Source of the DNA: Saccostrea cucullata
Lineage: Eukaryota
Direction of reading: 5' to 3'
Length of the DNA: 64,000 nucleotides
Assembly: GCF_032062105.1 (NCBI RefSeq)
Contig: NW_026936832.1
Location: 1-64,000 of the forward strand
A program made the position numbers and the translations under genes. Within the stretch, counting starts at the first letter, position 1. Each line of letters begins with the position of its first letter. Positions 1 to 51,932 of the stretch are shown here, piece after piece. Under the pieces are notes generated by a model. The model searched no databases, had not been told where the DNA came from, and saw only the letters and a list, made by a program, of their open reading frames with translations.

Positions 1-1332
1 TCCTGTTTCTACACACTCCCACAACGCGGGCTACATCTGCTTGTAGAATCAAGTCCGCCAACCCAGGGGGAATCCCCTGAGCTACAACCCAATGCGGATT
101 TCCTAACTCCGAGAGGGGCTCCTCTCGGAAACCATACGCTACGCACCCACCCATCAGTTCCACTCTCACATCAACTGGACGATGGTCTGCGAGCAACAAC
201 TCCTCCACTGACTGTACCTCACCCCCCGGGATCCTCCGGGGAAACCACAGGCAGTCTACAACTTGAATAAGTGGTATCGTGGTATCCGCTGACCAGGATG
301 GTCGCGGGGCTCCTCCGCTGGCGCCTTCCTCCGGCGGAACAACAACAACAACTGGTGGTGGATGCGGACTCTCCGCCACCACCGTCGTGGTCAACAACTC
401 CCGGGAGCTCGGAAGGCTGTCCGGTACTAAGACCACTCCGCTGCTAACCATGGCCTCGGGTAAGAGCTCGTCCTCCCAGGATTCCGCTATGTTAGAGCGG
501 GATCGTTCCAAACAGTTCCAAGTCCCCATTATATCGGCACCGTTTAACATAATAGCTATTACCAGGGGGTGTATGAACATGGCTACATGGGGTAACTCCC
601 CCATCCGCACCCTGCGGATTTCCGACTCGAGGGGCGGCACAATACCCAGATGGGCAGAGAAACGGATCATCAAGTCCCTCACACTACCGGAAAACCCCCA
701 CTCGACTTTTCCCATCCGCCGGACCACCCACTGGCGGAGATGACCCAGCAACCCAAAGTCGCTGGTACCCTCAGGGGACACCCTGAGCAAACGAGCTAAC
801 TGTAGGAGAAAATCCATGAACACTTGGGGGTCGTCTAACCCCTAGTGTGGTACTCCCAAATGTGAGCCAACATCGGGGTTGCCCCCGAGAACTTCATTCC
901 ACAAGCGTGGACTGCACATCTGCGGGTACCTCTGGCTCTGATACGGCGGGCTCCCGCCCCCTCCGCACCTGCGGGTATCAACCTTAATCTAGCACTAGAT
1001 TACAACCCCGCACGCCCGACTCCCTGGGGTCGGGGTATGCTGGCCTCCTGCGATCTCGCAGGCTCCTGCCCTCCAAGACTCATCTCTACCATCTCCGCCC
1101 AAGATGGTCCAGGGTGAACAGGCTGTCCTCGCCCAGCTGGCGGCAACGGGGGTGCTGCATCTGGAATCCCCGTGATAATCCCTCGACCTCTGGGCGCTCC
1201 GAGGTTCTCTTCCGGCGCTTCAGCATCACTCGCCGGTGCGGCCACTTCCGAGTCCGCGTCACTGCGTTCCCGCATCTCTTCCTCGGCGGAGCTTCCGCCC
1301 TCAAAGACAAACTCATCAACTTCCTTGGACAT
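1..1332 (-). pseudogene. Extra ORF3 of the Gypsy element: acidic N-terminus, C2H2 zinc finger (847-918), then a long open frame (838 to <1) ending in a putative TatD-like domain
   Basis: Manual translation: ATG at 1332, in-frame TAA at 1000, then CAVHACGMKFSGATPMLAHIWEYH. After a 1-nt frameshift at ~840 there are ~279 stop-free codons up to the window edge. Confidence 0.7.
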
Positions 1333-1476
1333 CACTTATGAACCTACAAAGACAGGTAAGATTATCAAACCTATGTCTAACTTACTAATTCATGTACAAG
1401 TCTACTCTAACCTGATGTAAACCCAACTGAGACTAGCACATGCTTCCGCATCATTGCGGAAATCTAACTGCTCTAA

Positions 1477-3476
1477 CTAGCCAGTGTCGACTCCGACGGG
1501 ACTACATTCGGGGCATATATATTGAGGTATCGACTTGGCATAGTCCTCACTTATACCTACGCACCCCGGATGGAACCAGTCCCGACAGTCGTCGCACTGC
1601 ACCATCATCCCCTTGGGATTAGACTGTAAGCAAACACAATATTTCTTGGCTCTAGTCCCCCTAGTGGCTCTAGGTTTCTTGGGTGCTTGGGGTTGTCTTG
1701 ATTGATCTAATCTTTCCCTAACCCGTTTACGAGTACCCATATACGGACCTACTGACTCCGCTGGTTTGGGGCTAACCTTTGAGTGACCCCCACTCCCCGG
1801 GCTCTCAGGACTTAATCCTGAATCTGCGGTCCCTAGCGGTGTTACCACGTCATGTGCAAGGGAACTATCCCCATCTCGGGCTACTGACTGTCCGGGCAAC
1901 TTATTCTTGTAGTTTATTAACCATTTAGGGAGTTGCCTGGACTCGCATCTTTTAAGCTTGTCATGGTGCATGACCTTGACCTCGCGCCGAGATTTTACAA
2001 CAAATATTGTGTCTGATTTGGTTTCTATTATTATCCCAGGACCCCTCCATACTGACTCTACCTTTTTTCCCGCATTGCGGCGCCAGTAGACCAAATCTCC
2101 GACCTTGAACTTACTGGTACGGACCTTAATGTCATGCGACCTTTTCATTGCCTTTTGCGCGACTTTTAGTTTTCCGCGGGCAATGTCGTGCGCTCTCTGA
2201 ACATTGTCTTCTAGATCACGTACATACTTGTCCACCTCACCCTCCTCCCCATTTTGAAAAGACGTGGAAGGCGGTGGGGCGAACATCAAGGTTGCTGGTA
2301 TATTTACTTCTCTACCCAGCATGAGACGATTCGGGGTATACCCAGTATGGCGGTTTACCGCGGACCGCAACGCTCCAGCCAATGGGCCTAAGTACTTATC
2401 CCATGACTTGGGCTGGCCATCTACGTAGCAACGAACCGCGTCCATTAGAGTGCGGTTATAGCGCTCTACCTGGCCATTCCCTGACGGACGGTAGGGTGTG
2501 GTCCTGGCCTTATGTATCCCTAACATGGCACAAATCTTACAGAACAGCTCACTCTCGAAGTTACGGCCCTGATCTGTAAAGATTTCGTAAGGATAGCCAA
2601 ATCGAGAAAAGAAGTCATTGATAGCAGAATTTTAGCGGTGACTTCCGCTGTCTGAGACGGAAGCGGAATACACTCTACCCACTTGGTAAAGCTATCTACC
2701 ATCATAAGGATGTATTCATTCCCGCTATCAGTTCGGGGAAGCGGCCCGAGAAAGTCTAAATGTACCCTCTCCATCGGGCTTCCCGCTTGGTAGCTCTTAA
2801 GCTCGGACCTGTTCGGCAACGAACCTCTCTTATTCCGGGCACATACGTTGCAAGTCTTGACATATAACTTTATGTCCTTTGTCATCCGCCACCAGTAGAA
2901 CTGTTGTTTAAGGCGTTCTTTAGTTCTCTGGATTCCCTGGTGACCAGAGGACGGTATGTCGTGACATAAGTGCATGATCTCGGATCTGAGACTCCGCGGC
3001 ACTAGGAGCCGACGGGGCGCATCCGAGTCATCCGGTTCTCGCCAAACAACTCCTGTCTCGTCGAGATAAAAACAGTCTCTCTCCAGAAGATAACACTTCT
3101 CTTCCGGACTACAGATAATTAAGTCACTTTCGGTAGGCAAGTCCCCAGACTCTAAGTACTGTCTAAGATATACCATAGTCTCGTCATTTTTCTGTGTCTG
3201 GGCTAGGTCTGCGGAACTGTATGAGGATAGCGAAATTCCCGCAGTATCACCTGTTACCTGACAGACTTGAGGACTAACTGTCTCAATCTTGGGATTTAAA
3301 CTCGACACCCCACTGACATTAATCTGGAAACTGGGTAGTGCAGAAGCACTTACAGTCGAGGGAGTATCTTCCCAAGAACTAGAAACAATGTCCTGACGAA
3401 GGGTGGGATCTAATGAACCACAACTACCCCCTTCGGCGGACTGACTCTCCGCTGGCACAGGCGTCTCGTCAAAGAG
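1477..3476 (-). pseudogene. pol: pol: integrase (HHCC + DDE core) with C-terminal PHD finger; frameshift near 2600
   Basis: HD...GHQG...CNVC zinc domain; core motifs RVHLDFLGPLP and NGQVERYNRTL; ends with KYCVC...MVQCDDCRDWFHPGC...YICPEC. Confidence 0.92.
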
Positions 3477-4400
3477 TTAGGACAAAGGAATTACATCGTC
3501 TATTTCAGTGTTAAAGTCATGCCAGCGCTCGTGGGCTCGGCGGCAATAACGGCATCCGCCGCAGGGCAAGTCTTCGACCCTAATTCTCGTCGAGTACCCC
3601 TGGCATGAATCAGGTATGTCCCGGGACAGAGCGTCAGCATTCACATGCTTCTTTCCCGGGCGGTGTACGATCCGCATGTTGTACTGGCTCAGTTTCTCGA
3701 GCCATCGAGCAATCTGGTTCTGCGGATGCTTGAAATTCATCAGCCAGACCAGGCTATGATGATCGGTCCTGACTGTGAACTCACAACCCAGCAGGTAATG
3801 GCGGAATTGTCTGGTAAACTTACTTACCGCCAATAGCTCTTTACGAGTAGTACAGTACCTGCGCTGCTCTGCGGACAGCACAGCACTCCCATACCCTATT
3901 GTTCTCTCTTTCCCACCCTGGACTTGGCTTAATTCCCCGCCTACGGCATAATCCGAGGCGTCAGTGTCCAGGATGAACTGACCTGTACTGTTCGGTATGG
4001 CTAGAACTGGAGGATGAGTCATTAACTGAATGAGTTCCTGAAAAGCACTCTGCTGCTCTTCACCCCACCGGAAACCACTTTTTCCGGTAACCGCATACAG
4101 CGGAGCCGCAATTCTGGAGAAGTGGGGGATAAAACTGCGGTGATAATTGGCGAAGCCAAGAAAGCGCTCTACGCCCTTAACATCACATGGAACTGGCCAG
4201 TCACGCACTGACTCAATGTATTGATCCCCCATCTCAACTCCGTGCTCGCTCACGGTTCTACCAAGGAACTCGACCTTAGTCTTAAACAGCTCGCATTTCC
4301 GAGGCTTGAATTTAAGGCCATATGCTCGGAACCGCTCAAACACTTGTCGTAGGTTATCAAGGTGAGCGTGTGCTGTAGATCCTAAGACTAGGATATCATC
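3477..4400 (-). pseudogene. pol: pol: RT C-terminus and RNase H
   Basis: Motifs FLGFANYHRSFI, LDTDASDYAVGGEL, KELLAV, TDHHSL and HVNADALSR; in frame after the 4401 stop. Confidence 0.93.
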
Positions 4401-7400
4401 TTAGAAACCTAAGGCCATCTTCCAGTTGAGTCTGTGTAACACCAAATTTATGGCCCTAGCAAAGGTCGCGGGGGCATTACACAGACCAAACCCTATTCTA
4501 GTGAATTCAAATAAGCCATATTTTGTAATAAAGGCAGTCTTTTTCCGGTCTTCCGGAGCTATCTTAACCTGCCAGTAAGCCGCATTAGCGTCAAGTTTGG
4601 AAAACCAGCGGTTTCCCGCTAGCGTGTCCATGCACTCCTCAATGAGTGGCAGAGGGTACGTGTCCTTGACTGTCACCTTATTAAGGGCTCTATAATCCAC
4701 GCACCAACGGACGCTGCCATCCTTCTTCCGGACCAGCACTGGGGCAGACGCCCAGTCTGAGGAAGATGGCTGGATGACTCCGGCTTTCAACATCTTATCT
4801 AGATGACCCTCTTCCTCCCCTTGAAAAACAGCGGGGGTGCGTCGCATCCGCTGCTTGACAGGAGACGCATTTCCGGTGTCTATTCGGTGTTCGATCTCGG
4901 AAAAACTTCCGAGATCAAGGTCATCAGTGGCAAAGACGTCGGCAAACTTTTTGACTAGCTCCGCTGCCTCGGATCTGACTTCCACAGGCGCGGTCTTATT
5001 TAACTGCTCTAAGAGTGGGGCAATATGATCATAGGTCTTATCCCCCTCAAAGCTTACACGACGCACTGTGGGCTTAGTGTCATTTACTAGATCGGCAGGG
5101 ACTGCTTTCCCCACCTTAGTACCTGTCTTAACAATATGACTACGGTCTGTCATGTTTAAAATACACAGCTTGGCTCTATTTCCTGCAGTGTTGTATGTCC
5201 GCGAAGCTACTATACCAGGCGGAAATATGCTGGCTGGCTCCAGCATAAACTCTGGCATATCGGAACTAAGGGTACTCTCGATGATCTGAGCAGTGTGCGG
5301 GGGAATCCGCACTCTGCGGACTGAAACCGCATCGAGTACTGGTACTGACTCATCAACACTCATAGCAAATATAGTGTCAATGCCCTTGACCCTCAAAGTA
5401 CCGGCTTCACATGAAATCTCTACACCATGCTTACGTAGGAAATCTATTCCTAAGAGCATTTCATCCTGCAGAGAACCAACATACATCGGGTGAGCAAAAT
5501 CATAATCCCCGATGCGTAAATTAAGACAACCGAGGTACTGAGCGGTCATACCAGCTCCCTCGCCAGCCAACCTAACATTAGGGTCACTTAAAACTTCGGG
5601 CTGCGGCCTCAAAGATTTATTAACTTCACTAGATATTATTGATATGTCGGCTGCGGTATCGATTGTTGCTCGCACCTGTTGGCCTCCAATCTGTATCGGA
5701 ATACGCCAAGCCCCCGAACCAATGACCTGACTACCGGACCTGACTGATGGAATAACATAGGTCGCGTTTACCTTCGGCTCAGAGAACTTGATTTTAGTCT
5801 CATGTTTTGATGCGCGATGTCTGTCTTCATCCTCGCTACTTGTATACTTAAGGCAAGGTTTAGGGGACCCCGATCTACGCCGTCGCTGGCGGATCGGGCA
5901 ATCGCGTAACAAGTGTCCTGGCTCTTGACACTCAAAGCATATAATGGGTTTCGTCGCGCGAGAGCGGCCCCTACCCGGTGACGGATCCCTCGAGGATCCT
6001 CGCTCGGGACTTGATCTTCGGGTGCGGTCCTCCGAGTCACTGGAGTAATGTTTCTTACCTGCATCCCAATCCGGTGACTCGGAGCGGTCCCTACTAGCGC
6101 GGCGATCAGAACGGTCTCTGCTGGCACGGCGAGGACGGTCCTCGCTGGCACGATGAAGACGGTCTCTGCTGGCACGATCTGGGGAACGGTCGTCGCTGGC
6201 ACGATAAGGACGGTCCCTGCTGGCACGATTAGGGCGGTCCCTCGATTCTGAGCGTTTTCTGCGTGCCACGTAAAAATCTTGGCACTCAGAGTCTGACCTG
6301 GCGCGATAAAAACCTGAACCTGGCGACTGACTTCGGTCTCTGGAAAGCGATCTAACTGCCCTCGGCCGGCGGGCTAAAGCTCTACGGCTAAGTTGATACG
6401 TCTTAACCCTCTTAATTGCCTCCTCGAGAGTCCCCGGGGGATTATTAATCAACTGCTGCCCCGCCTCGCCGTCATTACACCCAAGAGCAAAACGAACGAT
6501 GATTTGCTCCTGGAAAACCTCTGGCGAGGTGCCGCCACCGAACGCTTTCTGGGCAGTGTCCATTACTCTGTCCCCCCATTGCTCGATAGCTTCGTCCGCT
6601 CGCTGGCAGATCGAATTAAATTCCAGCTGTGAGGCGGCTCTAAGGGAAGTTTTACCGAATCGCTCCTCCATCCGGAGAACGACCTCACGGAAACTTAACA
6701 GCGCGCCTCGTCGCCTGAGGATGTCAAAGTACTTAAGGGCTGCCCCCTCTAACGTAAGACTTAGGGCAAACAGAGAGTCGGGATCGCTCCACTGATGGTA
6801 CTCGGCAATGGTAGAAAACTTCGAGTAAAATGGACCCCATTCTACATCCCCGTTATATCTCACCCCTTTTACCTCGGCCGGAATATTTCTACTGACACAG
6901 CTACGGGTACCCGCGGGAAGTAAGCTAGGCAATAGGCTCTGATACGCGGTGGTCATTAGCGAATGACTCTGTCCTGCATTATGCAGACCCCCCTGACTGG
7001 GCATAAACGACGGACTACCCCCTAATGCAACTGACTCCCCAACCAACCTACCATAGTGGCCAGCGCCCTGACCACTCGAGTTAGCAACACTAGGATGCGC
7101 GGACGCTACGGGCATTGTCGCGGAAGTACCCACTCGGGTGCACCATGCAACCTGACCCGGAACCGGTGGGCCCGTGCTGGGAAGCACTGGGTAATCGGTC
7201 CCCCCTGACGCGAAAGAACCCAAAGTAATAGTACTCGGCAATCCCGAGACTAAACTGTCATTGCCAAGTGAGGATAGGGAATGACCCTGAGACATTTGTA
7301 CACTAGGTCCCCCCACAGAGACAGGCATATACCCCCCGCTATGTGCGGTCACTACAGGGTTACTTACAGGCATCTGATGTCCGGGTAGTGCGCTAGGGAC

Positions 7401-8143
7401 CCAAGGACTCCCCTGGCTACTAGTCACTACTGGCTGACTGACCCTTTTATCCTGCATGGGCGGGGGTGACTGGGGCTGACTGGTCTTCATTAACCCAGCC
7501 AACATCTGAGTAATATTACCCAACTGGCCCCCCATACTTGTCTCCATGGCACCTATGTTAGATCCCATCGACCCCAGCTGTTTAGACACACTGGTCCCCA
7601 GGGCATCTATCTCGGACCCCATAGTCCCCAGCTGTTTTGACACATTGGTCCCCAGGGCATCTATCTCGGACCCCATAGTCCCCAACTGCTGTGACACATT
7701 GGCCCCCAGGTATCTATGTCCCCTCCCAGGGCCCCCATATCCTGACCTAGGGTATCCACCCTCTTATTAACAGTGTCCATTTCCCCCTGGATCCGGTCTA
7801 CCGCTCCCTCCAGGATCTGTTGACGTTCCTGGAGGAGGGAATAAAAAGCGGACCATCCGGGTGTTTCCCCTGGACCCTCCGAAATAGCTCCCTGTGTGAG
7901 TGACATGTCCCCCTCCCCATACTGAGTGACATTATCCGGGGCACTCCCCCCCTGGGGCACAGGTGTACTAGCAACACCAAGGGCAAACTTCACACTCTTT
8001 GTAGGCGGGACTTTCCCTGGGCTGCACTCTAACGGGGCACCTAATAGATCACTCCGGTCTCCCCCCACCGAACGAGCGTACCAACCCCCCTCGGGTCTCA
8101 AAGCCCCCCTACCAAGACCGAACGAGCTAACCTCTCGGTCCAT
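4401..8143 (-). pseudogene. gag-pol: gag-protease-RT (N-terminal part of the polyprotein); frameshift near 7708 and premature stop at 4401
   Basis: Zinc knuckle CFECQEPGHLLRDC; aspartic protease DTAADISI; RT motifs WASAPVLVRKKDGSVRWCVDYR and LDANAAYWQ. The catalytic motif reads F*DD. ORFs 7661-8200 and 4401-7697 join through a 1-nt deletion inside an 18-codon repeat. Confidence 0.92.
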
Positions 8144-8367: not shown

Positions 8368-8385
8368 CCCTGGATCACAGCGCCA
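8368..8385 (-). promoter_or_regulatory. Primer-binding site TGGCGCTGTGATCCAGGG (possibly tRNA-Ser)
   Basis: Begins with TGG (complement of tRNA CCA) 1 nt after the LTR end. The first 11 nt are complementary to a ...UCACAGCG-CCA tRNA end; the tRNA identity is recalled, not searched. Confidence 0.75.
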
Positions 8386-8386
8386 A

Positions 8387-8654
8387 TATAGTATTTCCTG
8401 TATCTACATAATAAGACTGTGATGGCGGAATAAACAGGCAAATACTATGATATAAAAGTCCGCACTTTATTGCGTTAGTGGTCGCCAATAATATGTGACA
8501 ATTACACAATGACTTACAGAGAATCAAGTAACACGTCCTGTCGGGTCGACAATCAGCATAGAAGAGAGAGTGTATTACGTCATCCGCATCATTGCTGGAC
8601 ACGTGATCGGAGGCTACCGGGGAATTCGTCCCCGGCTCCTCCAGGACCACCACA
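8387..8654 (-). repeat. Putative 5' LTR (~268 bp) of the Gypsy element
   Basis: Minus strand starts TGTGGTGG at 8654 and ends TACTATA (expected ...CA) immediately before the PBS. Base composition changes to AT-rich DNA beyond 8654. The partner LTR is not in the window. Confidence 0.7.
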
Positions 8655-9813
8655 CCCGCAAATCTCCTTTAGCGTGTGTGCAGTTAAGATCCATTTTCAA
8701 TATATGGGTTGTAATTGTTAAATTTGAGCTCAGAGTTCAATATATCCTAGCCATGCCATGTGCACAAACTAACGTGGGAAAGGGAAATAACTGTAAAGTA
8801 TTTACGATATCTAAAAACACGAAAGGAGTTGTTAAAGGTGAAGTCTAAATACCTAAAAAGGTGTAAACACGCGGAGATTATTCTGAGAGAATATCTATAA
8901 ATATATTTATTTTGAAATATTTCCCCATAGTCTAATGTATTTTAATCGAATCCACTACTCATTTAAAGAGTGAGAGAGATATATAGAGAGTGACTTCACT
9001 TACATTAGCTGTTTGTCATATGAAATGTTTAAAATTAGAAAAAAAATATATGTATGTCTACAAAGTCCGTAAAGGTTCAACGATATACGGAAAACTAGTC
9101 TATGACGTCATCTCAGTCAGTACAGAGAATAATGTTATAATGAAAAGATAAGTGACACATTTATTTATATTTATTATATTTATTTATATTTGATATTTAT
9201 ATATTTATGACTGTATGTAACAGTTTTCTTTCGTGACGTCATATAAATTTCCTAAGGCTCTTCATAGGCTAATTTATTTATAGAGGAGACCTTTACCAAG
9301 ATCAGAATACGTAATATCATTTACATCTTTTCTAAATTTCGTTTCTTAATTGTCAAAAACGCAGGATATTTTACCTTTGAAAGACATCGTATTAAAATAA
9401 TTTTACATGAATAGAATAAATAATTGTTATATCCCTCTTGTGGAAGAAACTTAATATTGTAGATTTTAGCTTCAAATGGACACTGTTTTAAAATTATTTT
9501 ACTAATTTGTGGATAGAATAAAATGTTTCTTCTTAAGCATAGTATCCTGACCCCTTTTAGGACCCCTCTAACTTCATCTATATTACGTCTAACCCACAAT
9601 TTGCTTTCTTTGTGGTACGCTACTTACAAAAATTTAGACTGAAAACAGCTCTTTTGTTTATTTAAGGTATATAAAAGGTCCTCTAGTGGATGTTAATTTC
9701 TGGCTGTTCTGCCTGTCCGAGTTGGTTTGTTTGTGTCTCATTTGTAGTAGGCGGGGTATTTCATCGATTTAATGAAAGCATTCAATAGGGCTCCACTTAT
9801 AATAGTTTCAATC

Positions 9814-41645: not shown

Positions 41646-43934
41646 ATTACAGTAGAAAGATTCATGTCCATCTATTCTTTTTTCAATGTTGCTCTTATTA
41701 AGAAGTGACTTTGAAAGTGTTCCAGATTGTTCACATTCTAAAGCATGCTCATGGAAACGCCGTTATCACCAGTCCCCATAAAATGGAGCTTCAGTAAGTG
41801 CCGCATCAGGCATTTTACTGTTGCAAAAATGACCATATGATGATCAGATCTACAAGAAGTTAAGTTTTTAAAAATGTGTTTAAAATATTTTGTTAAAAAG
41901 TTACATTAAAAAATTTTAAAAAGAGCATTTAAGCATTTAATTCTGTCTAAACGATTCCATTTGAATTATTTCCATTACTATAAACAAAATGCAGCTTTTC
42001 CACATGTATAGATGCATGGTGCAGTCTTTATAGAGAAAAAGGTCAATATCAATTAGCTTTTTATATAAGGTTCGCTACTCTTTACAAAAGCAATAAGCAG
42101 TAAATTTGGAGAGCAAAAAAATTGTTTGAATCACACAGTTCAAATTTAAGTTCCGGAGATACCTGAATGAAATTAAATATTTGATTTGTTTAACTTCAAA
42201 TCAAATCCTGTTCATGAGATTCCATAAATTCTGTACTCTTTATTTCAAAATGATAAATTTCTATAAAGAACTCTAAGTGGTATATTGCATATATTTGCCC
42301 CCACAAAAGTCAAATTTTGAAAACTTCCTGAAATGTGCTGAATTCAATAAATTGTATGGGAAATATAAATTAACAGAAAATATTGTAGTGTCAAAGCAGT
42401 GTATTAACAATTTTTGTTTTTATGATGTCACAAAGTAGTCCGATTTTATATCCTTTTTTCAGAAAGAGGACAAAATGGACAAAATTTCAACAGTTTTAGC
42501 TTTAAAATTTATAGAGCGCAAGTTTGTTCAGGAACAATATTGACATATTTCATTGATATTATCATTCTACACATTATATCAAAATATTGATCCTGAACAC
42601 ACATGCGCTCGGTGACTTTTACTCAAAATATCGACGAAATATGTACATTTTTCTGTAAAATTCATAAAAAACTGAAATTTACGTCATGTTTGTAACGTCA
42701 TTACGTACATACAGCGTCATTACTTAAGAAAATATTCAGTGCTTTGAAGTCAGCATATACTCCCCTGTTTAAGTACTTAATTAAATATATCTCCATCAAA
42801 GTTTGATTTGGGTGGCAATAATGGTTATTACCGAATAAAGTTCTTTTCTAGATATTTAATCAAAATATATTCTGTGATGATGCAATTGTAACAACTCTGA
42901 TATAAATTGTACATGTACTTGTCTGATAAGCTTCCTTGCAGAATTCTTTAGAAAAGGCTTTTTTGACTTATTTTGTACACAAACTGTGTTCCATACATTT
43001 TTTGTTCCTGTATAAATTCCAAAACTACTGGGGTATAAATGTCCATCAGGTGTTTACTAATAAAATGAAAGTAAACACATTCACATTTAGGAATTCCACA
43101 TACAATATTGTGAATACAAACAGCGTTCCATACTGAATGGTAATTGCAACCATTATATATGTGTAGATGATATTTGGCCGGTGTGGAAGTCAATACTTCA
43201 CTTCTTTGGGAAAAAAAATATATAATTTTTTTGATTTAGTTTTGATTGCATAACAAACTACAGGTTAAAATAACAACCTTTAATGCTAATTGGCTATTGT
43301 TTTCAGGCTGTCTGTCATAGAAAGCTCATATAGAAAAAGTACGGTGTGCAAATGGGTAATTCTAAATTCATATTCATCCCTAATTTTAATCTTTCGATTT
43401 CCCAACTTTCCCCTGAGTGAATTTTTCTAAACTTTTTATATGTGAGTTACTAATAACTTATCTATAAATCTGCATTAAAATATATACTGTTGCAATTAGT
43501 TCTCATTTTTCAGTAGAATGACTAGACTACTAGTTAAAATAGCTTTATGTTATCTTGAAGAGTATGTCCATCGCTATTCACCTCGGAATTTTTGTGATCA
43601 TGTGACCCTCTAAAGTCACGTGGGCTCCGATTTTAGGTCAACAAATGAAATGTTAAATTTAACCAAAAAGTTCAAGGGCAAGGCAAACAAACAAAAAACT
43701 TTACAGTGCTTTAAATTGTCCCTATGTATCTATACTTTCGCAAAAGTGATGCTCATTCAGTTGGTTTTCCGATACATTTAAGTTATTCACCTAAAACAGT
43801 CAGTAGTATATCAAAAATATTTTTAAAAAGTTGCAAACCTCTCAAAATAACTATTCTTTACACAGAACTTTTACATCTCTGAGGAGATAATATAATCAAG
43901 CATGGAAACAATTAAAATCAAATTTTTATTCATC

Positions 43935-46161
43935 TCTTGCTGATAAAGTCAGTGATAGTACTAACAATACAAAAAAGTTCTGGCGAAATTTTGACAATTA
44001 TAAAATTAAACAGCATGAAAGCACTTCAGCTATTAAAATGGAGGATTGGGTGAATCATTTTTCAACATTACTAACATCCAAAGAAGATAATCCTTTTGGA
44101 AGTTACTTAGATAATACCTATTTAGATGAGAAATCGCCCTTAGATTTCCCTTTCACCTGTAAAGAAGTAAAGATAGGAATTAAAAATTTAAAAAATGGAA
44201 AAAGTTGTGGACCTGACTTAATTTTGAATGAGTTTATAAAAACAAGTTCTAATATTCTCCTTCCAACATTGGTAAAAGTATCTAATAAAATTCTTAATAC
44301 TGGTAAGATACCACAAGCATGGAATCAGTCATTTATTATGGTTCTTCATGAATCAGGTGATCCAAATAATTGTAACAATTACAGGGGTTTGAGTGTAAAT
44401 AGTTGTTTAGGAAAATTATTTAGTGGACTACTGCAAACAAGATTGTCAGATTATCTAGAAAGTAATTCTCTTCTAAGCCCTTTCCAGTCTGGCTTTAGAA
44501 AGCAGCGTCGTACAACTGATAATATATTTGTTTTAAAAACATTAATTAACAAATATGTTTTCTGCAAAAAAACAGAATTATATGCTTGCTTTGTTGATTT
44601 TAAAAAAGCATTCGATACTGTGTGGAGACCTGGTCTTCTTCATAAGCTTTTAAATAAAGGTATTGGAGGTAATTTCTATAGAATTATTGAACATGTATAT
44701 TCTACTACTGTGTGTGCTGTTAAACAATCAAATGTTCATACTGATTTTTTTCCTACAAATCGTGGAGTAAAACAGGGAGATAATTTGAGTCCAACACTTT
44801 TTAACATTTTTATTGATGATTTTACAAAATATTTAGATTCTTCGAAAACATGCCCTGTTCAATTGAACGACATTAACTCTAACAGCTTATTTTTTGCAGA
44901 TGATTTATTACTTGTATCTGAATCAGTAGATGGGCTACAACAATGTCTTGATTCACTGGAAAGATATTGTTGTGAATGGAAGCTAGAAGTAAATACACAA
45001 AAAACTAATGCTATGGTATTTTCTAGTAAAAAACTTAAAAAACTGAGTTGTAAAACAATGAAGTTTAAAGAAGATGTTATTGATTTTGTTGATGAATATA
45101 TGCATGCGAGAATTTAGCAGGTAGAGCAAGGAAAGCATATTTTATGATCAAATCAAAACTACCAAACAATGTTAGTCTCTCAGGAAAGGTTCAGCTTAAG
45201 ATATATGAATCATGCATTATACCAATTTTAACTTATGCTTCTGAAATATGGATAAGTGATTTTAAGAATATTACAAAAGACTTTGATAAAACTCCATTTG
45301 AAAAAATTCAAAATTTCATCTTGAAAGACATTTTAGGGGCCCATAATAAAGCTTCTAATTTAGCAGTTAGAGTAGAGTTTGGTGCACTTCCCATTATTTT
45401 CAGAGTTTATAAATTATTATTTAGATATTATTATAGATTTAAAAAACTTGTTGCAGATCAAGAGAATTCAAACTTACTTTTACAACATGCATATTTAGAG
45501 GATGAAAAACTTGCAGGAAGTGGGAAAACATGTTGGCATAACTGTATACAAACTATACTTGATGAAGTTATTGGTTCAAATGCTAATACATTATCAATAA
45601 ATGATTTTGAAAATAATTTGAAAAAATATTTTGAGAACATAGTTTTTAAGGATATAATAAATATCAGAGAAAAGGGTAATGGCAAATTATCATTCTACAG
45701 CCAGTTAATAAGTCAAGGGAATCTAAACAAACTTGAAATTCAACCATACTTAAATTTTTCCATTTCCAAGAATCTTCGTTCTTTTTTGACTCTATTGAGA
45801 ATAAGTGCTCACAAATTACAGGTAGAGGTTGGCAGATAATGTAACCCAATTATACCAAGAGATGAAAGATTTTGTATTAATTGTAAAAATGTCGTTGAAG
45901 ATGAACATAATTTTTTATTTGTATGTCCTCTATAAAAACAACTAAGAAGTGAATTTTGTACACTTTTTAATAAAACCTGTATATCTTATGAAATTTTTAA
46001 TCCAGCAGATGTTAATTCTACAAGGAATATTTGTAAATTCATACGTGATGCGTGTAATATAAGAAAATCTATGTGACTATATATTTTATATTTGTTTACT
46101 GTATGTATGACTTGCGCCACATGTGGTTTTTGTCAAATTGAATAAATAAATAAATAAATAA
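43935..46161 (+). mobile_element. 5'-truncated non-LTR retrotransposon (RTE-X-like) nested in the hAT element
   Basis: RT motifs NYRGL, FVDFKKAFD, GVKQGDNLSPTLF and FADD; C-terminal RISAHKL.VEVGR...C..C...EDEH...C; (AATA)n tail at 46140-46161. Confidence 0.88.
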
Positions 46162-49100: not shown

Positions 49101-49460
49101 ATGCAGCCAAACGGCACATAAGAAAGAGAATTATTTTAAAAACATGCTATTCTGTATAGGAGAAAATCGCTAATAATTATTTATTTAAATATTATCCTGA
49201 TTACTGCATAGGCATCGATTATGTTGATGTGCTGTTTATTTACGTCCAAGCTTGTTGTTGATAAAAACATTTTAATTGAGATGTGTTTGTCTTTACTTAA
49301 GATGCAGCGAATATTTTATAAACAATAAGTCGGTAGCTATTGATATGTACATAGCAATTTACATTAATAATTTTCTTTGAAGTTTAGTACGTACCAGTAT
49401 AAAAAGGCCATGCCAATTCTACTCGATACCCCATTATTTTTTGGCATTTGGCTTGTCAAA

Positions 49461-51932
49461 ATGGGGAAACGCAAACTTTTAGATTCTGACTCCAGTCAGT
49501 CTAAAATTCAGAAATTGTCCATGTTTGGCTTTACTTCCAATTCGGGGTCTGATCATTCAACCCCAGCCTTTCAAACTTCGCCAACAGTCCCAAGTCCAAA
49601 ACCTTCTACACCAAAACGTAAATTTAACGTCAGTTGGAAATTAAATAGGGACTGGTTAAGATATGATTCCAAATTGGGCATGATGTTTTGTGACATCTGT
49701 ATTTCGGCCAATGTACGAAATGTTTTTACTGAGGGTACAAGCATTATGAAGAAAGAAAACGTAGTCAAGCATGAGAAGGGAAAAGGTGCTTATCTTCTAA
49801 TAGTAAAATAAATTGTAATTTTTAAATAATAAAGATTTTTTTTAATTCTACATATATAATTTACCACAATTTTTAAAAGATTTTTTTCCCTATATTCTAC
49901 ATATATAATTTAGAATCAAAGGATAAATAAATAATTTAAAAAAAACAACAACACAATAAACCTTATTCGACGTAAAATACTAATTTTTTTCTTTTCTATT
50001 AATTAGGTGACAATAGTCACTCTGCAGCTCTACAAAAGTCCAAATCTGCTGAAAACATGGAAACTGTCAGACAAAATGCCCTCTCCAAGAGTAAATCTGC
50101 AATTATATCTGCCTTCGAAACACCTACTTTGCTGCATCAAATGACCTGCCCAATTCCATGGTTCCCAGACTAAACAATTTATGCATATCCCAGGTAGTAA
50201 TTAATTCCATCATCATTTTCTTTCAAAAATTAAAATTAAATTTGTATCAATCTGAATCTTAAATCAAAATCTATTTAAGGTCTACTTAAATAAAAAAAAA
50301 TAATTTTTTGTTTATTATTTTTAGGGTAGTTCTCAGCTTAAAGATCTCAATGTTGATTCCCATACAACATGTGAGAGTAACAGCAGTGTTCAGGAGTTTC
50401 AGCAGTCGTTGTCCGATGTGATTCTTGATAGGCTCGTAGATAGGGTTAGGGGTAGCTCTGTATTCATTGTAATGTTAGACGAGTCTACAGATGTCTCAGT
50501 TCACCAGAATCTCATAGTATATGTTAGGTTTTTAGAACAGATAGGTAGTAGGGTAGTTCCATCTGTAGACTTTCTAGGCATTAGGCAGTTGTCAGTTGCA
50601 AATGCAGAGGCAATTTCTTCAGAGTTGATAGGTTTGCTTAAGGATAAGGGATTAGACTTGGATAGGTTAGCTGGTGTTTCAACAGATGGGGCTTCTGTGA
50701 TGGTAGGGTGTAAGAGTGGAGTAGTTACTAGGCTTAGAGAAATGTATCCAGGTATCTTAGCAACCCATTGTATAGCACATAGGTTAGCACTTGCATGTGG
50801 GGAGGCAGCTGATAAGGTCACTTACTTAGTTAAGTTTCAGGCAGTTCTGAATGATTTGTATAAGTATTTTGAGAGATGTCCTAAGAACATGGCTAGGTTA
50901 GAGAAGGTTCAAGGAATCTTAGATTGTAGCAGGGGCACTAGGCTCAAGCAAGTTTCCCACACTAGGTGGTTAAGTTTTGAGGGTAGTGTTCAGGCAGTAG
51001 TAGACAATTATCAGAGTGTAGTTGCAGTCATGTTAGAGGAAAGTTCTGCTAAGGCATTAGCTCTCCACAAGCCCATTTCTTGTTACAAGTTTCTGTATGT
51101 TGCACACTTCTTAGCTGACGCTTTGAAGCCATTAGCTGTGTTGTCAAGGTCATATCAAAGGTCAGATCTAGATTTCACTGAGGTCAATTGCCTTCTGCAT
51201 TCAACTGTCAAGGTCTTGGACAATTTGATTAGCAACCCTGGTGGTAACTTGTCTGCCTTTCTGCAGCATGTTCCATCTGAGCCAACTCTTGATGAATCAG
51301 GTCTTTACACATTTGAGTTTCAAGGTCACATAGTAAGGGATAGTCTAGTACAAAGGTCAGAGGCAGTTAGGGCATGTAGCACTTTTATAGAGGGTGTTAA
51401 GGCTAGTTTGCAGTCTAGGTTTACTGATAGGGGTGATGCTTTGGTTTTGTCAGCTTTGAGTAGGTTTTTTGATCCTCAGACAGTTGTTGATAGGACTCCT
51501 CCTTCTGAGGACATAGATATCATAGCAAACCATCTTTCAGTATGTAAGGTAGCCAAGGTCAGAGATTGTAAGGATGAGTTACGGAATTTTGTAGAGTTCT
51601 GCAGGGCTAAGGTAGACTCAAATTCTAGGGTAGGGTCTAGCAGCTTAGATATTTGTCAGGTAGCATTTAGGGCTAGGGCAATGTTTCCCATCGTGGCAGC
51701 TGCTGCTGAACGCCTGCTCACTGCTCCTGTCAGCACTGCAGACTGTGAACGAGGTTTCAGCCGGCAGAACCTAATCAAGACCGATGTGAGAAACTCCCAG
51801 TAAATTTCCACACTTGAAAACCTTATGAGACTTTCCATCTCCAGCAAATCAGAGGAAATGGACTATGAGGAAGCCTTCCAAAAATGGAGTCGCACCAAAT
51901 CCAGGAGGATTTTCTCTGTGAACTTTCAGTGA
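49461..51932 (+). pseudogene. hAT transposase (TTF-type zinc finger, ZNF862-like), three exons: 49461-49785, 50007-50193, 50325-51932
   Basis: F..SW...RDWL.Y....MFCDIC; LDESTD; STDGASVMVG; HCIAHRLAL; TRWLS; CERGFS. GT-AG introns with compatible phases; 1-nt frameshift at ~50116 and TAA at 51801. Confidence 0.88.

Follow-up and report, generated by a model that had tools for sequence, protein, structure and literature searches.

The first 64,000 nucleotides of contig NW_026936832.1 from Saccostrea cucullata (NCBI RefSeq assembly GCF_032062105.1, positions 1 to 64,000 of the forward strand; hereafter, the window) carry near their start, on the minus strand, a decayed Ty3/Gypsy long terminal repeat (LTR) retrotransposon that belongs to a large marine-invertebrate lineage. 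Its integrase ends in a PHD finger, a trait conserved across much of the lineage, and related elements bear an additional open reading frame (ORF3) encoding a TatD domain. The reading that we favour, with moderate confidence, is that a host-derived PHD that reads methylation of histone H3 lysine 4 (H3K4) tethers the integrase to K4-methylated chromatin and thereby biases insertion toward promoter-proximal sites, in an element that also encodes the TatD protein. A fuller version is put forward tentatively and is, taken whole, rather doubtful: an undescribed and widespread lineage that uses a host-type reader of trimethylated H3K4 (H3K4me3) for insertion at active promoters, as a mirror image of the chromoviruses, together with spliced zinc-finger/TatD cargo.

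The finger lies in a minus-strand ORF of 384 aa (2631-1477) that comprises four parts:

1900 to 2631, minus strand: latter half of the integrase's catalytic core plus the SH3-like C-terminal domain, both sharing the PHD's frame
1642 to 1899, minus strand: linker of 86 residues, Ser/Gly/Pro-rich and then basic, predicted to be disordered
1504 to 1641, minus strand: C4HC3 PHD finger (ORF residues 331-376; cage residues Y331, M343 and W352)
1477 to 1503, minus strand: C-terminal tail of Pol, eight residues, and stop codon (TAG at 1477-1479)

An initial annotation, made from the letters alone, had described a complete C4HC3 finger at the end of a Gypsy integrase, and both elements of that description hold. 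The Pfam family PHD (PF00628) matches residues 332-376 over its whole 47-position model at 41.2 bits (cut-off 24; E 1.7e-10), and eight of eight zinc ligands are present (C332, C334, C346, C349, H354, C357, C373 and C376, corresponding to window positions 1638 to 1504). Because the same ORF contains the second half of the core and the SH3-like domain, the fusion of PHD and integrase is real and in frame; rve, MLVIN_C and Integrase_p58_C also match this ORF, all below their Pfam cut-offs. Upstream of the finger, gag, protease, reverse transcriptase (RT), RNase H and the HHCC domain of the integrase occur in Ty3/Gypsy order, and a Pfam scan of the window's ORFs recovers the pol order protease-RT-RNase H-integrase that identifies the element as Ty3/Gypsy.

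The segment joining integrase and finger had been characterized as a low-complexity basic linker. Low complexity is indeed seen in its first 53 residues, 25 of which are Ser, Gly or Pro, whereas the basic character is confined to the last 33 residues, which include 13 Lys or Arg. At 86 residues, the linker of the window copy is unusually long, the median among 132 relatives being 14 and the range ~8 to 86. The AlphaFold model of integrase, linker and PHD is poor (mean predicted local distance difference test score, pLDDT, 56; predicted template modelling score, pTM, 0.28), and a fold search with it returned integrases only; this model is uninformative on the cage. A linker so variable in length and predicted to be disordered disfavours a fixed structural contact, and thus speaks against a structural role for the finger in the intasome. 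That role forms part of an improbable alternative in which the finger serves either such a function or the binding of a non-histone ligand, namely a mimic of the H3 tail from the host or the element. H3K4me3-type fingers, including that of PHF2, do bind H3-mimic N-termini (PMC8166343); however, the cage is kept from mollusc to echinoderm hosts, the pattern to be anticipated if the ligand, like H3, does not vary.

How regularly relatives carry the finger was estimated from a search with RT and RNase H only, because a search with the PHD-bearing ORF (107 of 120 proteins with a complete finger) is biased toward PHD hits; scans of genomic loci, in which a PHD peptide was one of two search patterns, are biased as well and were likewise not used for frequency. 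Among the best 120 proteins of the RT/RNase H search, 67 extend as far as the integrase end, and the PHD is present in 62 of them. The remaining five comprise two with PHD stubs, one truncated just before the finger, one with a repeat tail, and one distant fish element. Further members of the clusters number 107, of which 44 reach the integrase end; 42 of the 44 match the PHD profile and 40 have the complete ligand pattern. A finger missing from other full-length copies, the outcome that the initial annotation had named as fatal to its proposal, is therefore the exception in both sets.

Phylogenies built without the finger point the same way. In a FastTree phylogeny of 236 integrase regions from which the PHD columns had been removed, one group (support 0.93) holds 145 rows, 134 of them PHD-bearing, and only 2 of the other 91 rows bear a PHD. 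An IQ-TREE phylogeny of RT, RNase H and integrase from 54 long proteins requires 3 changes of state, compared with 17.4 for shuffled labels, and a 20-row core containing the window's proxy has a Shimodaira-Hasegawa-like approximate likelihood ratio test (SH-aLRT) support of 98. Two PHD-bearing proteins, P0140 and P0244, fall outside the node of the main PHD rows. The finger may have had one origin followed by losses, or may have been captured two or three times. In the distant relative P0244, a different PHD occupies the same C-terminal place; this finger, which we take to be ING-like, suggests a second, independent capture of a K4me reader. Yet another partial PHD is found at the C-terminus of P0233.

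Across pairs of relatives, PHD identity tracks integrase identity (r 0.69; medians 47% and 56%). Codon comparisons covered 40 loci and pairs above 62% integrase identity, which are not independent of one another. Synonymous sites are mostly saturated in these comparisons, and non-synonymous differences in the PHD are usually at about the level of the integrase and somewhat higher in some pairs. In the PHD pairs that are not saturated, the proportion of non-synonymous differences (pN) is far below that of synonymous ones (pS): 0.01 versus 0.38 for L034/L036, and 0.02 versus 0.15 for L005/L007. The finger is under purifying selection. These results bear on the suspicion that the match reflects chance, a neutral passenger or a host exon beside a transposon fragment, which draws on the decay of the window copy and on a related fragment (P0262) annotated as 'death-inducer obliterator 1-like'. 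More than 130 distinct integrases, however, share the position of the finger, there are no introns, and P0262 itself has an integrase C-terminal domain. The frequency of the finger in both sets of relatives, the integrase tree and purifying selection refute this explanation, to which we assign a negligible probability.

Named hosts of elements with the finger are Saccostrea, Pinctada, Haliotis, Nucella and Lytechinus. Several clusters contain 80-150 members at 90% identity, which suggests recent activity in some hosts. Whole elements (L081-L097, with P0062, P0089 and P0106) also turned up in bacterial bins labelled Sedimenticola, SUP05, Nitrospinota and Thiodiazotropha; such matches are almost certainly host DNA in symbiont bins. 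In IMG/VR, 156 pattern matches included zero true relatives.

With regard to its class, a profile of 43 family fingers finds its best matches in the PDB in PHF2, CXXC1, DIDO, BPTF and PHF8, at 70-78 bits, which bears out the CXXC1/PHF2/DIDO assignment made initially. ING, KDM5 and TAF3 score far lower against this profile, and no Pygo chain occurs among the best 60 of its 83 PDB matches. For the window's own finger, plant EBS/SHL, CXXC1 and PHF2 rank first among solved structures. In PHF2, Tyr14, Met20 and Trp29 form a cage around K4me3 that Tyr7 caps, and Glu22 contacts R2 of H3 (PMC8166343). The Tyr/Met/Trp cage reported in the initial annotation is present in that Y331, M343 and W352 align with Tyr7, Met20 and Trp29 of PHF2, but the fourth wall, formed by Tyr14 in PHF2, is N338, leaving three positions of four. 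Among 134 relatives, Tyr or Phe is kept in 130, Met in 132 and Trp in 133. The Asp after the third Cys (D347), a likely part of the H3R2 pocket, is retained in the window and in 111 of the 134 relatives; we take it to be the counterpart of BPTF D27. Judging by these residues, the finger likely binds H3K4me2/3.

According to the reading favoured here, a host PHD of the PHF2/PHF8/CXXC1/DIDO/BPTF class would have been appended to the C-terminus of the integrase early in the lineage; its presence, clustering and selection show that it has since been inherited with the integrase. The finger would tether the integration complex to K4-methylated nucleosomes, and tethering would bias insertion toward promoter-proximal open chromatin. 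Such an arrangement would work like the chromodomain of chromoviruses with the opposite mark, or like the tail of murine leukaemia virus (MLV) integrase that binds bromodomain and extraterminal (BET) proteins, with the reader built in. PHD-guided integration is physically workable, since an ING2 PHD fused to the integrase-binding domain of LEDGF shifted HIV-1 integration toward start sites (PMC8149907).

A number of points weigh against this reading. For tethering to work, protease processing would have to leave the finger attached to the mature integrase; in P0001, the closest named relative, the finger has lost two of its zinc ligands. Support for a node that joins all main PHD rows is weak (SH-aLRT 73). 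The fourth wall is aromatic in just 42 of the 134 relatives and Asp in 66, and the position of PHF2 Glu22 is Gln in the window copy and in 104 of the 134. As for insertion sites, most of the 97 related loci are fragments or elements that have been collapsed through the LTR, leaving almost no flank; the sole apparent flank, that of L090, comes after an assembly gap, and the finding of no tRNA gene in the 44 of these loci that were scanned is uninformative given the missing flanks. The visible flank of the window copy is transposon-rich (Polinton-like, long interspersed nuclear element (LINE), hAT and other fragments), and the first host-like exon, a G protein-coupled receptor (GPCR) fragment at 63.1-63.6 kb, is ~54 kb off, a weaker point because the flank reading concerns one old insertion and 27 further ORFs of at least 85 aa on one side, which short exons would escape. 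Furthermore, Grau-Bove et al. contend that a preference for active chromatin should be detrimental to a transposon (bioRxiv 10.1101/2021.11.30.470311), and the PHD-bearing Gypsy-7a of Chlamydomonas inserts mostly between genes (bioRxiv 10.1101/2022.06.16.496473).

Several of these points are what one would cite for a possible but less probable alternative, in which the finger does bind H3K4me tails and tether the integrase, yet without promoter targeting: it would provide chromatin access or mitotic retention, or direct the element to H3K4me1/2 flanks, enhancers or other host-safe, non-genic K4 sites. The frequent Asp at the fourth wall, the transposon-rich flank and the intergenic bias of the algal element all fit this alternative. 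The fourth-wall position is presumably equivalent to BPTF Y17. A Y17E variant of BPTF favours Kme2 over Kme3 (PMC4589357). The flank, on the other hand, is that of a single old insertion, filtered by selection. Moreover, the CXXC1 finger likewise has Asp at the fourth wall in the PDB-match alignment, and CXXC1-type fingers read H3K4me3 at promoters. Because the fourth wall is Asn here and often Asp in relatives, H3K4me2 appears as plausible a ligand as H3K4me3, and selectivity for the latter is not assured.

The initial annotation had presented the finger as standing in the place of a chromodomain, a comparison that survives as positional analogy only. Pfam reports no Chromo match in the ORF 2631-1477, and no Chromo family is shown for 53 relatives scanned, 46 of which were picked mainly from outside the PHD group (for four long proteins, only the best five families were shown). 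Since relatives show no Chromo, no chromodomain was replaced; instead, the finger was added to a chromodomain-less integrase. Chromoviruses such as MAGGY nonetheless share with the present lineage a histone-methyl reader placed after the SH3-like C-terminal domain and the same proposed tethering logic. Compared by the domain on the integrase tail, they differ in carrying an H3K9me chromodomain, whereas the lineage of the window carries an H3K4me-class PHD.

A reader on the integrase tail is thus a known design, and retrotransposon PHDs are already known; indeed, de Mendoza et al. (2019) describe them as widespread. The nearest precedent is Gypsy-7a_cRei of Chlamydomonas reinhardtii, likewise a Gypsy Gag-Pol with a PHD proposed as an insertion guide (bioRxiv 10.1101/2022.06.16.496473). 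This element, however, comes from a green alga, has its PHD between RNase H and integrase, to judge from the order in the figure legend, and is presented without mention of a TatD ORF in the accessible text of the preprint. Animal retrotransposons with a fused, H3K4me-reading PHD have likewise been reported by Grau-Bove et al.; these are cnidarian and carry PYGO1/2-type, PYGO-orthologous fingers, in contrast to the present finger with its best solved matches in PHF2, CXXC1, DIDO and BPTF. Ginger1-9_HM also bears a PHD C-terminal to a Gypsy-like integrase but is a DNA transposon with Ulp1 and PHD (Bao et al. 2010, PMC2836005), and in CR1/L2 the PHD is likewise accessory but sits in ORF1 of a non-LTR element (Kapitonov and Jurka 2003). 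Reader-tethered integration to start sites is further known from the BET-binding tail of MLV integrase and from the engineered ING2-PHD-LEDGF fusion (PMC8149907); there, the reader is host-encoded or engineered and acts in trans, whereas here it is a covalent part of Pol.

The term 'PHD' is absent from the main text of two surveys of mollusc and annelid LTR elements (PMC6238403, which names mollusc Gypsy clades such as MolGy1-16 and the C-clade, and PMC8556966) and from a BEL/Pao survey, and has no relevant occurrence in a 2026 DAM-LTR preprint. A description of a PHD-bearing animal Gypsy lineage was not found in a search that left most subscription journals, Repbase Reports and supplements outside its scope, and no TatD cargo in retrotransposons was found in the literature searched, as judged on titles and abstract openings. 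Within this scope, an H3K4me2/3-class finger that marks a broad marine-invertebrate Gypsy lineage, together with TatD cargo, appears to be undescribed.

The second distinguishing feature of the lineage, overlooked in the initial annotation, is ORF3, which in related loci extends for ~500-1100 codons directly after the PHD stop (for example L002:5650-7785, L081:2827-6129 and ~30 other loci). Its remnant and a candidate splice acceptor lie at the edge of the window:

1333 to 1360, minus strand: candidate splice acceptor, a pyrimidine tract and AG (1345-1344), 11 nt before the ATG of ORF3
1 to 1332, minus strand: window copy of ORF3, interrupted by a stop (1000-1002) and a frameshift (near 845) and cut short by the window edge
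Within the latter, minus strand: N-terminal acidic/Pro-rich stretch, then a C2H2-like finger (~847-918), a helical domain and the beginning of a TatD-like barrel

Twenty-three ORF3s were picked from related loci as long ORFs, most of them already matched by the protein P0416 and two of them from PHD-less loci; 22 of the 23 match Pfam TatD at 96-152 bits (cut-off 27). The model of the TatD domain is confident (mean pLDDT 76) and shows a TIM barrel, the best Foldseek matches are all TatD, and a profile search also finds TatD structures. This domain is preceded by a helical domain and a conserved C2H2-like finger; the ESM Atlas returned nothing above 0.78 for the N-terminal 350 residues. The metal ligands of TatD (DxHxH, Glu, two His and Asp) are well preserved, with the His columns and the first Asp column intact in 23 of 23 and the Glu and last Asp columns in 22 of 23, with one gap.

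The window copy has departed further. By itself, its ORF3 does not rise above noise in Pfam, and its score on the family profile is negative; the tie to TatD runs via two close relatives, of which P0416 has TatD at 36.6 bits, and a profile alignment to the family is colinear but weak (probability 47%, E 2e-4). The N-terminal HxH is absent in the window and in P0415, and later His columns are replaced in P0415 and P0416. Since metal-binding histidines have been lost, the ORF3 protein of the window's subfamily is probably a pseudo-nuclease.

A pyrimidine tract and AG precede the first ATG of ORF3 in 17 of 24 loci, compared with 43 of 293 internal ATGs, a control consisting of coding sequence. 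A cruder acceptor count (37 of 55, against a shuffled mean of 12.9) is not strand-specific, 29 of 55 being reached on the opposite strand. The pattern suggests that ORF3 is made from a spliced message. In the favoured reading, this separate downstream ORF, probably expressed from spliced RNA, would yield a zinc-finger/TatD protein that may function as a 3'-5' exonuclease or an enzyme resembling apurinic/apyrimidinic endonucleases, probably acting on cDNA or integration intermediates; the version in the window's subfamily looks catalytically dead. A partial parallel is provided by LTR elements of bdelloids, which likewise have an extra ORF after pol for a 3'-5' nuclease-type enzyme; their ORF3, however, encodes a DEDDy exonuclease, unlike the TatD barrel of amidohydrolase fold behind a C2H2-like finger and helical domain seen here (Rodriguez et al. 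2017, PMC5408684).

Among loci with at least 2.5 kb after the integrase, 33 of 35 have both PHD and ORF3, and 2 of 35 have ORF3 without PHD, a count that is partly circular because the ORF3 profile was built from 23 of these loci. That the finger travels with a second chromatin or nucleic-acid module lends some colour to a rather unlikely proposal, namely that the finger functions once integration is complete, or on the chromatin of the element itself (in LTR activity or repair, perhaps with the TatD protein), and has no part in target choice; the same reservation has been expressed by de Mendoza et al. (2019) about the methyl-CpG-binding domain of a Copia element. However, L044 and L048, PHD-less sister elements, bear a TatD ORF, so that the two modules are separable, and the TatD ORF may be older than the finger. 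Moreover, the integrase of LTR elements is a minor, particle-packaged product, placed to act at integration.

The rest of the element extends upstream of the PHD-bearing ORF as follows:

2632 to 3002, minus strand: HHCC zinc domain of the integrase with the initial portion of the core, cut off from the rest by a frameshift near 2630
3477 to 4733, minus strand: reverse transcriptase and RNase H, with in-frame stops at 4401-4403 and 3477-3479
5433 to 5702, minus strand: aspartyl protease (Pfam scan)
5895 to 7763, minus strand: gag region of a single gag-pol frame, with a CCHC knuckle and a weak PNMA-like capsid match below cut-off
8375 to 8385, minus strand: probable primer-binding site, with a similar motif behind the LTR of related loci
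8387 to 8700, minus strand: probable 5' LTR, its outer boundary approximate and drawn from a drop in GC

With two in-frame stops and one frameshift, the window copy is dead. The frameshift near 2630, which the initial annotation had not recorded, sits inside the integrase core and splits the integrase. The motif at 8375-8385 may resemble the 3' end of a tRNA-Ser. The 3' end with the 3' LTR falls outside the window, which therefore contains no LTR pair; several related loci show terminal repeats or circular assemblies. P0001, also from Saccostrea cucullata, is 93% identical from RT to the integrase start and 82% over the rest. Between RNase H and integrase (~3480-3590, minus strand) lies a four-cysteine motif (Cys, then LPC-x2-C-x2-C), matched in 47 of the 54 long relatives whether PHD-bearing or PHD-less; it is a probable extra zinc finger that marks the wider lineage. 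The N-terminus of gag (7510-7770, minus strand) contains short tandem peptide repeats with an 11-residue unit, and an Arg/Ser/Asp-rich repeat at 6100-6250 precedes the CCHC knuckle. In two Pol proteins of the lineage, P0039 and P0320, the N-terminus matches PF01885 (TPT1/KptA RNA 2'-phosphotransferase).

Elsewhere in the window, a cluster of ORFs at ~14000-24500 on the minus strand includes integrase-like (23493-24476), cysteine-protease-like (17588-18103) and capsid-like (18277-19512) frames; we take it to be a Polinton/Maverick, and its only Pfam match is a weak one to rve. The plus strand carries a LINE RT fragment at 43891-45839 (Pfam RVT_1), a hAT-type transposase with a C17orf113-like zinc finger at 49371-51803, and a second Gypsy RNase H fragment at 56969-57400. 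On the minus strand, an RT fragment at 33087-33974 has no Pfam match and is presumably Penelope-like. The GPCR fragment is a rhodopsin-family-like exon at 63103-63615 (minus strand) with 7tm_1 below cut-off, interrupted at 63403-63475 by a tRNA-like stretch that is possibly a short interspersed nuclear element. A tandem unit of 331 bp occupies 13037-13712.

Self-encoded chromatin readers borne on integrases are known to aim at heterochromatin, as in chromoviruses. If the favoured reading is true, a natural element with a built-in reader of an active-promoter mark would represent the opposite strategy and a compact natural example of reader-guided integration. Targeting of active chromatin is open to direct test by comparison of PHD-bearing with PHD-less sister families in the genomes of oysters, clams, abalones and sea urchins. 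The conserved TatD ORF adds what appears to be a new enzyme class to the cargo known from retrotransposons; at what point in reverse transcription or integration such a nuclease would be required becomes a question in itself. The lineage also explains why an oyster gene has been annotated as 'DIDO1-like' and why TatD/integrase contigs in symbiont bins pass as 'bacterial'. Finally, were insertion indeed guided in this way, these elements would be a likely source of regulatory variation in farmed shellfish.

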